Shown one piece after another: positions 3,441 to 35,346 of a DNA stretch of 64,000 nucleotides. Location of the stretch: positions 126,621 through 190,620 of the forward strand of contig CAZHIP010000001.1 of NCBI GenBank assembly GCA_964532925.1. Direction: 5' to 3'. Every line of letters begins with the position of its first letter. The stretch's first letter is position 1. Both the position numbers and the translations under genes were made by a program. The notes under the pieces are model-generated. The model made no database searches. It was not told the origin of the DNA and was given only the letters and a program-made list of their open reading frames with translations. This stretch comes from an uncultured Gammaproteobacteria bacterium (lineage in GTDB: Bacteria > Patescibacteriota > Patescibacteriia > GWA2-47-26).

Positions 3441-3465
3441 ATTATTTATTTTCACTTTGTTCAAT

Positions 3466-3555
3466 CGGAGAGGGAGGGATTCGAACCCTCGATACGGATT
3501 GAAACCCGTATAACAGGTTAGCAACCTGCCGCTTTCGGCCACTCAGCCACCTCTC
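3466..3555 (-). tRNA. tRNA-Ser (anticodon GCT), long variable arm
   Basis: Reverse complement reads GGAGAGGTGGCTGAGTGG...GGTTGCTAACC...GGGTTCGAATCCCTCCCTCTCCG. Acceptor GGAGAGG/CCTCTCC, anticodon loop TTGCTAA. Confidence 0.85.
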
Positions 3556-3572
3556 CAAGTAATACGGAAACG

Positions 3573-3700: not shown

Positions 3701-3738
3701 CTCGCCGTGGTCCTTATTGTGCTCTAATCGAGAATTGT

Positions 3739-3823
3739 GGAGGGGTGGCCGAGTGGTTTAAGGCAACGGTCTTGAAAACCGTCATGGCGCAAGTCATCGC
3801 GAGTTCGAATCTCGCCCCCTCCG
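3739..3823 (+). tRNA. tRNA-Ser (anticodon TGA), long variable arm
   Basis: GGAGGGGTGGCCGAGTGG...ACGGTCTTGAAAACCGT...GAGTTCGAATCTCGCCCCCTCCG. Acceptor GGAGGGG/CCCCTCC, anticodon loop CTTGAAA. Confidence 0.85.
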
Positions 3824-3825
3824 TA

Positions 3826-3858: not shown

Positions 3859-4767
3859 TTATCGGGATCGGTCGCGGCGGTCATTCTTCTTGCGGGATTC
3901 TTCGAGCTTGCTGTCTTCTTTTTCTTCATCGTCATCGGGAACAGAGACATTAAGGTCTTTTTCTGCTTTACGGATGACCTCATGTTCACGTTTTTCGCGA
4001 CGAGCGCGTTGTTTTGAGCTAAAGGATGAGTCTTTGGGTGCGGTATTGCTCATCTTGTCTGTCACGACCGGTTCTTTTTGTGTACGAGTAGCATCTTGGT
4101 CGTCATCACGCTTGTCCACGCGTTCTTCGAGGTTTTGTCGGCGAGCATTCATGAAGCGTTCACTCTGCTCAATTGTTTCTATTATTCCTGCGGTTTCCTT
4201 TTGTGATTTTTTCATTTCTCGCAAGATTTTTTTGTGCGCATTGAGCGGTGCTTCGATGTTTGAACTTGCTTCCGCTGCGGCTTGAATGTTACCAGAGCGC
4301 TCCATGGTATCGATAGATTTTTGAATACGCTCTGTGTGCGCATTGATATCGAGATTCAGTGCAGAGAGTGTCTGTGGGTCAAATTTCTGTTGAGCGATTT
4401 TTTCTGCTTCAACGAGGCGGCGCTCAAGACGGCGTGTTTCCCAGGCGGCTTTTGCAACTGGTGTTCGTGCAATGGCGGAGCGGACTTCCTCGGTAACGTG
4501 TACCTTCACAGGGTACAGTACGTCTCCTGGCATGGTTCTTTCAGCAGCCGCAGCAACCCCACTACTTACGAGCGCTACGACGAGCGCAAGGCTAATACTC
4601 GTTGTGAATGAACGATGGAGGGTAAAGAAAGTCGACCATGCTGTTCTTGGTTTGATGTCGCCCACGCCAAGGAGCGTAGTAAAATGCGAACGCATCGCAG
4701 CGTGATCAGCGGGGGTGAGCACGATGCGATGTGCATCCTTGATCAGTTGTTTGAAAGACTTATTCAT
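3859..4767 (-). CDS. single-pass membrane protein downstream of the ECF sigma gene; putative anti-sigma factor (DUF5667-like)
   Basis: 302 aa. One TM helix (ISLALVVALVSSGVAAAA), a cytoplasmic N-terminus and a highly charged, coiled-coil-like C-terminus. Its start overlaps the sigma factor stop by 8 nt. Confidence 0.5.
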   Translation of the reverse strand: MNKSFKQLIKDAHRIVLTPADHAAMRSHFTTLLGVGDIKPRTAWSTFFTLHRSFTTSISLALVVALVSSGVAAAAERTMPGDVLYPVKVHVTEEVRSAIARTPVAKAAWETRRLERRLVEAEKIAQQKFDPQTLSALNLDINAHTERIQKSIDTMERSGNIQAAAEASSNIEAPLNAHKKILREMKKSQKETAGIIETIEQSERFMNARRQNLEERVDKRDDDQDATRTQKEPVVTDKMSNTAPKDSSFSSKQRARREKREHEVIRKAEKDLNVSVPDDDEEKEDSKLEESRKKNDRRDRSR

Positions 4768-6720: not shown

Positions 6721-6752
6721 TGCGTAGAACGAGCGGTTTTCCATCAAAGTGT

Positions 6753-6824
6753 GCCCTCGTCGTTCAATGGATAGGACACAAGCTTGCGGAGCCTGTGATA
6801 TAGGTTCGATTCCTATCGAGGGCA
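6753..6824 (+). tRNA. tRNA-Arg, anticodon read as GCG (unusual)
   Basis: GCCCTCGtcGTTCaatggataGGACaCAAGCttGCGgaGCCTGtgatATAGGttcgattCCTATCGAGGGCa. Acceptor GCCCTCG/CGAGGGC, T-arm ATAGG-TTCGATT-CCTAT, one A/C mismatch in the anticodon stem. Folded by hand. Confidence 0.6.
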
Positions 6825-6847
6825 GATTTTAGTGGAATACCAAACAA

Positions 6848-7651
6848 CTAGGGGAGCAGATAATACTGCTTCCTTTTTTGTATAAGACCTTCTGTTTCGA
6901 GTCCAGAAAGCACTTTTGCTAAGATTGCTGGGTCAGCATTAATCTCTTTTTGCATCGAGAGAAGAGTCATTTGTTCTTTGGATGTGAGCAATTTTAAGAT
7001 ATTCCCGCGTATCTGTCGGGTTGAGCCTTCAAATGCTGATTGCCGTACATAATGAGCACTCTGCCGATTGGGGTTTACAACTGTCTTTGGAAGAATCGAT
7101 CCGTAGTCCATAAGCGCGCTGTACCATTCTCTGGCTCGGTTGTGGGGTAGTGATTTTTCTACCAGTGGCAAAAGTTTTTTGTCAGACACGTTTTTTGTGC
7201 GCGGAAAAAAATGATGAATAAAAACGCGGCGAATGTTGGTTTCGATAAATACTACAGGGGTGTTAAACGCAAATGCAGGAATCGAACGCGCTGTTGCTGG
7301 CCCAATACCAGGAAGCTTCACTAGTTCTTCTGGGGTATTGGGTAAGATGCCATTATAATCACGCACAATAATCTGTGCTGCGCGATGCAGAAATAATCCG
7401 CGACGGTTATAGCCAAGTCCTTGCCACGCCTTCAAAACATCACCAGCGGTTGCGTTCGCTAACGCTTGGAAAGAAGGAAACTGCTCTGTGAATTCTTTGT
7501 ATTTTATGATGACGCGTGGCACCTGAGTCTGTTGAAGCATGACCTCGGAAATGAAAATACAATAGGGGTCAGTGGTATGACGCCACGGTAGATCACGGCC
7601 ATGTTTTTTATAGTAATCCCAAACGAGTGCTTGAAAGGCTTTGATCTCCAT
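6848..7651 (-). CDS. mutY: HhH-GPD base-excision glycosylase, MutY/endonuclease III-like, apparently lacking the [4Fe-4S] cysteine cluster
   Basis: 267 aa. The N-terminus (LPWRHTTDPYCIFISEVMLQQTQV) matches the MutY helix-hairpin-helix core. The whole protein has only one Cys. Confidence 0.7.
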   Translation of the reverse strand: MEIKAFQALVWDYYKKHGRDLPWRHTTDPYCIFISEVMLQQTQVPRVIIKYKEFTEQFPSFQALANATAGDVLKAWQGLGYNRRGLFLHRAAQIIVRDYNGILPNTPEELVKLPGIGPATARSIPAFAFNTPVVFIETNIRRVFIHHFFPRTKNVSDKKLLPLVEKSLPHNRAREWYSALMDYGSILPKTVVNPNRQSAHYVRQSAFEGSTRQIRGNILKLLTSKEQMTLLSMQKEINADPAILAKVLSGLETEGLIQKRKQYYLLP

Positions 7652-33165: not shown

Positions 33166-33247
33166 TAAAGAAAGCCTAAGAATGAAAATACCCCCGGCAG
33201 CATGCTGTATGCTGGCGGGGGTATACGTTGGGAGCAAGGAGCGGAAG

Positions 33248-33550
33248 TTAGTCGCCGCCCTCAAGGAGCGTTTCTTTGGCGACTCGATGAGCTCGGCAAA
33301 GAGGTTCCCCGAGGTCCACTAGGGTGGCTACGAGGGTTTTGAGTTCCTGTTGCTCCTTGGGGGGCAAAGAGCGAATGCGTTCTCGGAACTCTGCCCAGAG
33401 TTCATCACGAACTGCGCGCTCGAACGGGAGCTGTTTTGCTCGTTCGGGCAGCTCATTCAAAACTTCTGTGAGTTTTGGGGTCTCGAGAGCGCGGAGACGT
33501 TTTGCGTCCGCGAGGAAAGACTGATCTTCTGGAATGTATTCTTCTGTCAT
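33248..33550 (-). CDS. hypothetical protein
   Basis: 100 aa, helical and charged, no recognisable motif. Confidence 0.4.
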   Translation of the reverse strand: MTEEYIPEDQSFLADAKRLRALETPKLTEVLNELPERAKQLPFERAVRDELWAEFRERIRSLPPKEQQELKTLVATLVDLGEPLCRAHRVAKETLLEGGD

Positions 33551-33597
33551 TCTTTCTCCTTGTTGGTTGCAGGGTGAACATCGTGAAAAGAGCAGCT

Positions 33598-33786
33598 TGG
33601 CGCGCGGCGTAGGAGTCGAACCTACTAGAAGAGCAACTACCTAGGGAGAATTGACCAAAATTGCTGGCGGGGGATCTTGCCAATAGTTTGGGTCTTTCTC
33701 TGTTTGTGTTGATACCTCAGGATTTCATCAACACAACCCTCTCCAGATAGCGGCCAAGTCCCTACCCAGAACTTTACTTACCGCGC
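33598..33786 (-). ncRNA. candidate structured RNA (about 190 nt) with a tRNA-like 3' end; identity unresolved
   Basis: On the minus strand a consensus T-arm GTAGG-TTCGACT-CCTAC is followed by GCCGCGC-G. That strand can pair with GCGCGGT at 33780-33786 to close a 7-bp acceptor-like stem. Internal perfect hairpins include GTGTTGAT...ATCAACAC. There is no ORF longer than 85 aa in the 512-bp gap. Confidence 0.25.
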
Positions 33787-34062
33787 ATACCTTGTACAAA
33801 CGAAATGACCGCCTTCCTTGTGTGGTGGCGGTCAGGTTTTTGACTTGGAAATGGTTCCTATGTCATCAGACCCTGTCCACACCCATAAAATTAAAGCAAA
33901 GGCCTTTGAAGGACTTTGTAATAATGTAGGATGTGACAATCTGGTACGACATACCTACACATCAATATACCTGGATTCTGGTATTTTGTCAACCAAGCAC
34001 TTTATTCACAGGTCTATTTTTACCCCTCGACGTAGCTTGTTTTTGTGTTAAAATAAGAACTT

Positions 34063-35346
34063 ATGCAAAATATTGCCAATCTCACCAAAACCGATCCCGA
34101 GCTTGCAGAGCTTGTCCAAGCAGAGGTTGTACGTCAGCAAACCGAGCTCGAGATGATCGCATCGGAGAATATTGTTTCTTCTGCGGTCCTTGAGGCATTA
34201 GGCACTCCGCTGACCAATAAATACAGCGAAGGCTATCCAGGTAAGCGCTACTATGGCGGTAATCAGGTTATTGATCAAATTGAACAGCTTGCGATTGACC
34301 GTGCAAAACAGTTGTTTGGCGCAGAACATGTAAATGTCCAGCCTCACGCGGGTGCACAGGCAAATTTTGCCGTGTATTTGGCACTGTGTCAGCCAGGAGA
34401 TACGGTGCTCGCGATGGATTTAAGTGCTGGCGGACATCTTACGCACGGTTCGCCGTATAACTTTAGTGGTAAGTGGTTCAAGGTGATTCCATATGGTGTT
34501 CGCAAAGACACTGAACGAGTAGACATGGAAGAGGTGCGACGTTTGGCGCATGAGCACAAGCCACGTATGATTATTGCTGGTTTTAGTGCATATCCGCAAG
34601 CACTGGATTTCCAAGAATTTGCAAATATTGCGCATGAAGTAGGTGCATACTTATTTGTTGATATGGCACATATTGCGGGTCTTGTTGCTGCAAAGCTAAC
34701 CGAGAGTCCTGTACCATATGCTGATGTGATAACAACCACCACGCACAAAACATTGCGTGGGCCACGTGGCGCAATGATTTTGTGTAAGCGAGAAGATCGA
34801 CTTGACCCTTGTGGTGTAAAGAATCTTGCACAGAAAATTGATAGTGCCGTATTCCCAGGTTCGCAAGGCGGACCGCTCGAACATTGTATTGCCGCAAAAG
34901 CTGTGGCGTTTGGTGAAGCACTCGAACCATCGTTTATTGAGTACCAGAAACAGGTTTTGAAGAATGCGCAGGTGCTTGGTGAGACACTGGTAGCCGAAGG
35001 CGCTCGTTTGGTTTCTGGTGGCACAGACAATCACTTATTGCTTGTGGATGTAACGCCGTGGAATATTGGTGGCAAAGAATCCGAAAGCACGCTTGAGAAG
35101 ATTGGTATTTCTATCAACAAAAATATGATTCCGTTTGATGCACGTAAACCCATGGATCCATCAGGTATTCGTCTTGGTACCCCCGCGCTCACATCTCGCG
35201 GCATGAAGGAGGGAGAGATGAAACAGATTGGCGAATGGATAGCCATGGCATTAAAGAACGTTGGTAGCGAGGAAATTTTGGCTGACCTGAAGGTAAAAGT
35301 CTCTGCCTTAGCTCGTAGGTTTCCTATTTACGCAGATTGGTCATAA
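34063..35346 (+). CDS. glyA: serine hydroxymethyltransferase
   Basis: PLP-lysine region [13 protein letters not shown] and other conserved SHMT blocks. Confidence 0.9.

Follow-up and report, generated by a model that had tools for sequence, protein, structure and literature searches.

Which kind of RNA, if any, is encoded beside glyA, in a gap where the 3' end of a tRNA can be read on the minus strand and the tRNA detector ARAGORN at its default settings makes no call? The gap is 512 bp long and lies in a 64-kb stretch of DNA from a Patescibacteria genome (candidate phyla radiation, CPR). This stretch is here called the window, and coordinates are positions in it. The gap is bounded by glyA (plus strand, start at 34063) and by an orphan open reading frame (ORF) of 100 amino acids, orf100 (minus strand, 33550 to 33248). 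The original prediction placed here a minus-strand structured RNA of about 190 nucleotides (nt) with a tRNA-like 3' end, and this has held: an element of 189 nt, called T, has as its minimum-energy fold a four-way tRNA-like junction (z-score -2.7). T is real and more tRNA-like than was seen at first, a tRNA-mimicking RNA that is known from two sequences and whose structure is maintained by selection. We favour the reading that T is a functional RNA shaped like a tRNA, restricted to one lineage and without a decoding role, that would occur as a free species, and assign this a probability of roughly 0.55.

The sequence bears out the T-arm from which the prediction started (GTAGG-TTCGACT-CCTAC, 33625 to 33609 on the minus strand, followed by GCCGCGC and G), as well as its pairing partner GCGCGGT (33786 to 33780), which forms 7 bp with GCCGCGC, one of them U.G. 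Of the two internal hairpins that had been proposed, GTGTTGAT/ATCAACAC indeed lies within the element, whereas GACCGCC/GGCGGTC (33834 to 33806) lies 5' of it. Three features had been overlooked: a CCA encoded directly after the discriminator, a D-like hairpin with GGG in its loop, and a long helix that closes 6 nt before the T-arm. The parts of T in the window are as follows.

33598..33786, minus strand: the tRNA-shaped RNA gene T, 189 nt, with its 5' G at 33786 and its 3' ...GCCA ending at 33598; recognized by sequence, by fold and by a diverged copy at L096:472-662.
33780..33786, minus strand: 5' strand of the acceptor stem, GCGCGGU, with U at position -1 in both copies; pairs with 33602-33608 over 7 bp, including one U.G.
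33756..33774, minus strand: D-like hairpin AAGUUCU-GGGUA-GGGACUU after a 5-nt linker; predicted fold with a 7-bp stem and GGG in the loop.
33736..33755, minus strand: 5' strand of the long arm, GGCCGCUAUCUGGAGAGGGU; pairs with 33632-33651.
33652..33735, minus strand: 84-nt "cargo", predicted to fold into a hairpin GUGUUGAU/AUCAACAC, a single-stranded AAACAGAGAAA and a hairpin GACC...GGUC.
33632..33651, minus strand: 3' strand of the long arm, AUUCUCCCUAGGUAGUUGCU; pairs with 33736-33755 and closes 6 nt before the T-arm.
33609..33625, minus strand: T-arm GUAGG-UUCGACU-CCUAC, with G53-C61 and U54 U55 C56 G57 A58; read from the sequence.
33598..33608, minus strand: 3' strand of the acceptor stem, GCCGCGC (33608 to 33602), discriminator G (33601) and encoded CCA (33600 to 33598); read from the sequence.

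The frame of T would thus consist of an acceptor stem ending in G-CCA, a T-arm, a D-like hairpin and, at the position of the anticodon arm, a long helix that carries a two-hairpin domain. This last arm measures about 120-125 nt, of which the continuous helix takes up about 18-20 bp before the branching into two hairpins. The plus strand of T folds no better than shuffled sequences (z-score -0.97), and nine G.U pairs of T would become A.C on that strand; the minus strand is thereby singled out as the RNA strand. The 17-mer of the T-arm, with at most three mismatches allowed, occurs twice in the 64 kb where 0.06 occurrences are expected, the other occurrence being a genuine tRNA-Arg. T has the 7-bp acceptor stem, the 5-bp T-stem with G53-C61, the T-loop UUCRANN and the discriminator G73 of a canonical tRNA. 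It lacks an anticodon stem of 5 bp that would carry, in register, a 7-nt loop with U33 and purine 37; in the canonical register position 33 is A in both copies. In both copies the sequence also offers what would be RNase P substrate features, namely a 7-bp acceptor stem stacked on the T-arm, U at -1 and a 3' RCCA. The three genuine tRNAs of the window (Ser-GCU at 3465-3557, Ser-UGA at 3738-3824 and Arg-GCG at 6752-6825) all have U at -1, and none of them encodes the CCA, as compared to both copies of T.

The key piece of evidence is the second copy, which is found in the contig L096 and was retrieved through its 97%-identical copy of orf100. On either side this contig matches the window with 98.5-99.7% identity, whereas a tract that begins immediately after GCGCGG and runs to about codon 18 of orf100 is strongly diverged. 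Over orf100 codons 1-20 the synonymous divergence (pS) between window and L096 is 0.61 and the nonsynonymous divergence (pN) 0.064, which indicates that orf100 is truly coding; for contig L098, of a lineage whose cytidylyltransferase gene is 94% identical, the values are 0.47 and 0.064. Since the protein-level divergence of the tract equals that of the L098 lineage, L096 must be either a recombinant with a lineage whose synonymous divergence is close to saturation or an assembly join with such a lineage.

Within this diverged tract the copy of T (191 nt) has kept its frame. GCGCGG, CCGCUAU, GAGA.GG and the CAAUUCUCCCUA of the 3' strand of the long arm (12 of 12 positions) are unchanged; the T-arm is identical but for one loop base (C to A), and.CCGCGC-G-CCA is kept, so that the T-arm with the 3' acceptor strand and GCCA shows only two differences. 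GCCA is preserved in spite of divergence directly after it. Other positions have changed on both sides of a helix. Acceptor pair 7:66 is U.G in the window and G.U in L096; the D-like arm of L096 has a 5-bp stem of other sequence, in which three pairs have both bases replaced, a loop GUUGGGA and a 2-nt linker; and the long arm shows one double change from G-C to A-U, next to several changes from G.U to G-C or A-U. Over the 37 pairs of the frame, 95.9% are paired with five double changes, as compared to none in controls in which the partners were slid by one to three columns. Given the two copies, RNAalifold arrives unprompted at these four helices. Model R1, for which only the frame pairs of the window copy were used, matches the L096 copy with 48 bits (E 9e-11), its remaining matches being ordinary tRNAs. 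When acceptor and T-arm are enforced, L096 folds into the same architecture, including two cargo hairpins (-64.0 kcal/mol). The L096 frame, in which the 2-nt linker is canonical and the D-stem has 5 bp, also passes as a tRNA in ARAGORN after removal of the cargo. The prediction had named conservation and covariation of the stems as a check, and the compensatory changes in L096 speak in its favour.

The cargo behaves differently. L096 carries a 94-nt two-hairpin domain in place of the 84 nt of the window, and the alignment of the two scores no better than shuffled sequences (-7.5 versus -7.6 +/- 4.2). We rejected the shared ACAGAGAA as a cargo motif, because an 8-mer common to two sequences of about 90 nt is expected about 0.1 times by chance. 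The notion of a hypervariable cassette under diversifying selection was rejected as unnecessary: with a pS of 0.5-0.6 in the same tract, neutral drift alone is enough to randomise the cargo. The frame of T is thus under purifying selection for structure, the cargo sequence being free to drift, and a conserved frame with a free cargo speaks against a decaying pseudogene or a remnant of an attachment (att) site.

Several points weigh against the preferred reading. T is known from only two independent copies; the pair counts come from an alignment that was fitted to the model, and the unconstrained optimum of L096 (-67.4 kcal/mol) is a different fold that is not tRNA-like. Position 8 is A or G, and U8 and A14 are both missing, and in the window copy the linker measures 5 nt and the D-like stem 7 bp, so that the L-shape of T can only be presumed. 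No convincing promoter of its own was found for T, which lies directly behind a terminator. The complementarity of the cargo to window sequence is at chance level and yielded no target. Fetched loci that add up to about 2.2 Mb contain no further homologue according to model R1, which apart from the two copies matches nothing but ordinary tRNAs, and a scan of viral contigs with six patterns gave no homologue of T either. Nor did the metagenome scan, the pattern of which demanded GCCGCGCGCCA, was too strict at the base before CCGCGCG and would have missed copies of the L096 type. With two members, the family of T is a good candidate for a new class, not a proven one.

If T indeed is a free RNA, its life could be envisaged as follows. 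Transcription would start at a strong promoter at 33992-33964 and reach T by read-through of a weak terminator, or alternatively start behind a poor -10-like element (TACAAG/TATAAG) just upstream of T. RNase P may then cut at 33787/33786 and release T from the RNA of a small ORF upstream, a step suggested by the 7-bp acceptor stem, U(-1) and G(+1). The encoded CCA would provide a tRNA-like 3' end that resists RNase Z. According to the model, the GG-containing loop of the D-like hairpin would be able to dock on the T-loop. The tRNA-like frame may serve as a handle for processing and stability, comparable to engineered tRNA scaffolds and to the tRNA-like domain of transfer-messenger RNA (tmRNA), and the long arm with its hairpins would be the effector or partner-binding part. 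T and orf100, which starts 47 nt downstream, would form one module that was gained together. Only tentatively do we propose the further step that T is the first of an undescribed natural class of "tRNA-scaffolded" RNAs in the CPR, whose handle recruits the tRNA maturation machinery, possibly also an aminoacyl-tRNA synthetase or the ribosome, and bears a structured domain that evolves freely, and which acts together with the orf100 protein.

Among the alternatives, the one that survives best is that T acts in cis, as an element in the 5' untranslated region of the orf100 mRNA. It could be a CCA-ended 5' stabiliser that remains after RNase P cleavage, or a switch in which the conserved UUCUCC of the long arm has two alternative partners, its own GGAGAG and the ribosome-binding site GGAGAA, which follows 85 nt downstream. 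T and orf100 come and go together and lie 47 nt apart, no terminator follows T and no clear promoter precedes it, and both UUCUCC and the GGAGAA site are kept in L096. For RNase Z, an encoded CCA acts as an anti-determinant, which also speaks for a role in cis. Such a switch, however, hardly needs a frame of acceptor, T-arm and D-like hairpin with CCA, which far exceeds the needs of sequestering a Shine-Dalgarno sequence. The 6-nt complementarity is of the ordinary Shine-Dalgarno/anti-Shine-Dalgarno kind and not statistically distinctive. We consider a role in cis rather unlikely.

Another reading is a decaying relic, either a pseudogene of a tRNA or the 3' piece of a tRNA that stays behind from an integrating element, with a fortuitous heptamer pairing. 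Elements that insert themselves into tRNA genes leave isolated tRNA 3' ends as their trace, and fragments of this kind (...GGTTCGA.TCC...GCCGCGCGCCA) without a 5' half exist in high-GC metagenome contigs (L008 6517-6541, L009 2104-2128 and L010 646-670), with the last 11 nt identical to those of T. By calculation, chance alone provides a 7-mer that can pair with GCCGCGC about 0.06-0.12 times in 250 nt, and T is situated in a slot where the gene content of relatives turns over. Nevertheless, a relic would not be expected to show only two differences over the T-arm and 3' acceptor/GCCA next to a pS of 0.61, nor five compensatory pairs, of which some involve the acceptor's 5' strand and others the D-like stem. 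Moreover, the host tRNAs lack an encoded CCA, so a remnant of a host att site would carry none either. This makes a relic very unlikely.

It is even harder to maintain that T is an unusual tRNA gene with an intervening sequence of about 100-115 nt in its anticodon arm. In favour of this idea, intron-containing tRNA genes that ARAGORN misses are common in Patescibacteria, the phylum to which the window belongs; their group I introns are inserted at 33/34, 35/36 or 36/37 (PMC13011429). T shares with these genes its invisibility to ARAGORN at default settings and conserved ends around a diverged middle that resemble exons and an intron, and the L096 frame is accepted by ARAGORN at the default threshold in 63 of 1515 deletions, once the cargo is removed. 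However, none of 1313 single-segment deletions of the window copy yields an ARAGORN tRNA, and the extra sequence is only about 113 nt, as compared to 184-894 bp for bacterial tRNA group I introns (PMC13011429). It sits atop a continuous helix of about 18 bp instead of in a 7-nt loop. Neither copy has a group I core or any group I or II match (RF00028 included) at E<=10, and U at the 5' splice site is nowhere combined with G at the intron end. The copies have no anticodon loop in common: candidate anticodons differ or depend on the boundaries chosen, and a GUC loop can be drawn in the window copy, not in L096. With A at position 33 in the canonical register, U8 and A14 missing and a non-canonical D region, we judge an interrupted tRNA highly improbable.

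Least of all do the data fit the two families that the original prediction had put forward, a miniature tmRNA-like rescue RNA or a YrlA-type, Ro-binding Y RNA, both of which are largely refuted: a tmRNA would share the topology of T and could explain a stop codon at the same conserved spot in both copies (UAG/UAA after AAU UCU CCC), and YrlA mimics the D and the T arm as well as the acceptor stem (PMC4201824), but pair 3:70 is G-C in both copies, so that the tmRNA/alanine identity pair G3.U70 is absent, the reading frames differ by 1 nt relative to ACAGAGAA, the sole shared cargo motif, the putative tags have no relation apart from ...NSP*, a stretch that a paired strand of the conserved helix encodes, no pseudoknots are evident, and as a Y RNA T would have its ends in the wrong helix, with no TROVE/Ro60 gene within 10 kb, where YrlA genes lie within 4 kb of the Ro60 (TROVE) gene on the same strand (PMC4201824).

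Searches with established detectors agree with the isolated position of T. Relaxed settings of ARAGORN give nothing beyond a tRNA-Leu that is implausible, its 106-nt "intron" lying in a stem, and its tmRNA mode finds nothing in the region, even at an 80% threshold. Rfam 15, applied to both copies and to the gap of one relative at the gathering threshold and at E<=10, returned chance matches only; no tRNA, tmRNA, Y RNA, group I/II intron or ribozyme family matches either copy even at E<=10, in keeping with the expectation that T belongs to no known family. A scan of metagenome contigs with GGTTCGANTCCNNNGCCGCGCGCCA gave only unrelated high-GC tRNA fragments and a phage tRNA-Arg, and blastn against phages only similarity to the 3' ends of tRNA-Asn/Trp (E>=0.6). 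A search with GlyA of genome contigs led mostly to distant bacteria (best 71%, Candidatus Uhrbacteria, which are also the best named relatives by GlyA), and neither T nor the small-ORF region was present in them.

As a separate observation, the viral contig L007 (IMGVR_UViG_3300037400_003676) carries two non-canonical tRNA-like genes beside a tRNA-Met, at 7309-7373 and 7466-7580. The first, of about 65 nt, has an 8-bp acceptor, one hairpin, a T-arm and GCCA; the other, of 115 nt, has the same acceptor as T (GCGCGGU/GCCGCGC-G-CCA). Neither of them gives an ARAGORN call or a match to model R1.

The remainder of the gap is also occupied. All its features are on the minus strand, in the order promoter, hairpin with small ORF, terminator, 10 nt, T, 47-nt tail and orf100. 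The features other than T are listed below.

33964..33992, minus strand: sigma-70-like promoter TTGACA-17-TATATT, 11 of 12 matches, kept in all relatives.
33866..33952, minus strand: conserved small ORF of 28 codons, within a long imperfect hairpin of about 95 nt (33859-33953).
33797..33834, minus strand: intrinsic terminator, UGACCGCC-loop-GGCGGUCA followed by UUUCGUUUG, directly 5' of T; kept in L003, L004, L005 and L102.
33551..33597, minus strand: 47-nt tail with the ribosome-binding site AAGGAG of orf100, about 80% identical in L096 and thus inside the diverged tract.
33248..33550, minus strand: orf100, the orphan ORF that co-occurs with T; one homologue in protein clusters, coding as judged from pS and pN.

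The gap thus holds the structured RNA that had been predicted, although it cannot be called wholly non-coding, because of the small ORF at 33952 to 33866. Relatives share the conserved stretch that precedes T (nhmmer E 1e-41 to 1e-59), and the long hairpin around the small ORF has a z-score of -3.9 to -5.2. Orthologues of the ORF are found on the minus strands of L003 (about 4211-4315), L004, L005 and L102, with 33-34 codons in relatives. The product reads MSYQIVTSYIITKSFKGLCFNFMGVDRV in the window and M(T)QVWSNNRFTSTKAIKSLCLIVGV..QTKHAS in relatives. For the two cleanest pairs, the ratio of nonsynonymous to synonymous substitution rates (dN/dS) comes to about 0.2-0.4. The ORF, which starts a few nucleotides past the predicted transcription start and has no obvious Shine-Dalgarno sequence, matches no family in Pfam, NCBIfam or Rfam. 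It may be a leader peptide or attenuator, a small protein or an mRNA of the type-I-toxin kind. Contig L092 (1-199; GlyA 82%) shows the same promoter without the small ORF and the long hairpin; only a short terminator-like hairpin AAUCGCU...GGCGAUC with GUUUUCAUUU precedes the ribosome-binding site there.

The hairpin GACCGCC/GGCGGTC at 33834 to 33806 had been considered a possible terminator of plus-strand transcription. In the window and in L003, L004, L005 and L102 the U-rich tail (UUUCGUUUG or GUUUUCGUU) is kept on the minus-strand side only, and in the relatives one C-G pair of the hairpin has changed to U-G, which is strand-specific as it gives a U.G pair on the minus strand. The comparison indicates that the hairpin terminates the minus-strand transcript of the small ORF instead. 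A simple scanner made no terminator call here, because the loop is 13 nt long and the U-tract is interrupted.

On the glyA side, the block 33995-34062, which separates the divergent promoters and reads CGTCGAGGGGTAAAAATAG..CTGTGAATAAAGT on the minus strand, hardly varies across all the relatives. It contains the glyA promoter-like TCGACG-16-TAAAAT and may be a shared regulatory site. A weak match to RAGATH-30 at 34047-34140 (17 bits, E 1.4) is far under the threshold. Within 10 kb of T there are genes for a penicillin-binding protein, GreA, LysRS, SerRS, FolD, GlyA, a cytidylyltransferase-like protein and a peptidase M3, next to unknowns.

Downstream of the terminator the picture changes. Contigs L003, L004 and L005, as well as L092 and L102, are syntenic with the window and have GlyA proteins that are 81-86% identical. 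Promoter and terminator are kept in these relatives, and so is the small ORF except in L092, whereas T and orf100, both present in the window and in L096, are both missing. Where T is lacking, the terminator is directly followed by a ribosome-binding site and non-homologous ORFs. T and orf100 would therefore constitute a lineage-specific module, gained together in a slot of gene-content turnover. The slot extends from the small-ORF terminator to the cytidylyltransferase-like gene (33166-33800) and holds unrelated ORFs in every one of the relatives L003, L004, L005, L092 and L102 (132 aa; 170+201 aa; 66+440 aa; 129+174 aa) between flanking core genes that are syntenic. Metagenome contigs of the closest lineage (L098-L100, 94% in the cytidylyltransferase) break exactly at the slot; they carry a diverged orf100 within which they stop. 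For the orf100 protein itself, 5.8 billion protein clusters yield just one homologue; it falls in no Pfam, NCBIfam or PADLOC family, and AlphaFold gives a low-confidence four-helix model (pLDDT 67).

Mimicry of tRNA is a recurrent way for RNAs to borrow tRNA enzymes, as illustrated by tmRNA, Y RNAs and viral 3' ends. The closest known layout is the tRNA-like domain of tmRNA (SsrA) with its helix H2: in T, too, the ends pair as a 7-bp acceptor with a 3' CCA, next to a canonical T-arm and a degenerate D region, and the place of the anticodon arm is taken by a long helix, from which a structured domain that evolves fast extends. Unlike tmRNA, which measures about 350 nt, T is 189 nt long, has G-C at 3:70 and a closed hairpin for a D region, lacks pseudoknots, and conserves no resume codon or tag frame between its copies. 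T resembles YrlA in being a non-coding mimic of a tRNA's acceptor and of its D and T arms; the only YrlA whose acceptor stem has 7 bp is cleaved by RNase P and acquires CCA (PMC4201824). YrlA ends in the Ro-binding helix at the anticodon-arm position (PMC4201824), whereas T ends in the acceptor stem, has no Rfam match and has no Ro60/TROVE gene nearby. T differs from viral mimics as well: it is chromosomal and lies in a core-gene neighbourhood, and what similarity it has to phage records is confined to tRNA 3' ends. In the 3' tRNA-like structures of plant RNA viruses and in small stable phage RNAs among tRNA genes, a mimic of acceptor and T-arm with CCA recruits tRNA enzymes; the former are pseudoknotted genome ends and the latter phage-borne.

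The design of T is identical to that of the engineered "tRNA scaffold" of Ponchon and Dardel, in which a structured RNA reportedly replaces the anticodon arm and the graft is processed and stabilised by the cell; both combine a tRNA acceptor/T/D frame with a structured cargo on an extended anticodon-side helix, the scaffolds being artificial. No natural bacterial counterpart was found in the literature searched.

The analysis replaces an apparently empty gap by a promoter, a conserved small ORF, a terminator, a tRNA-shaped RNA and an orphan ORF, and identifies a slot of gene turnover beside glyA. The translation apparatus of Patescibacteria is known as unusual. A tRNA-ended chromosomal RNA with a long cargo arm would be a new layout of tRNA mimicry and a natural precedent for the engineered tRNA scaffold, and since T escapes both ARAGORN and Rfam, it is well possible that similar genes are systematically missed.

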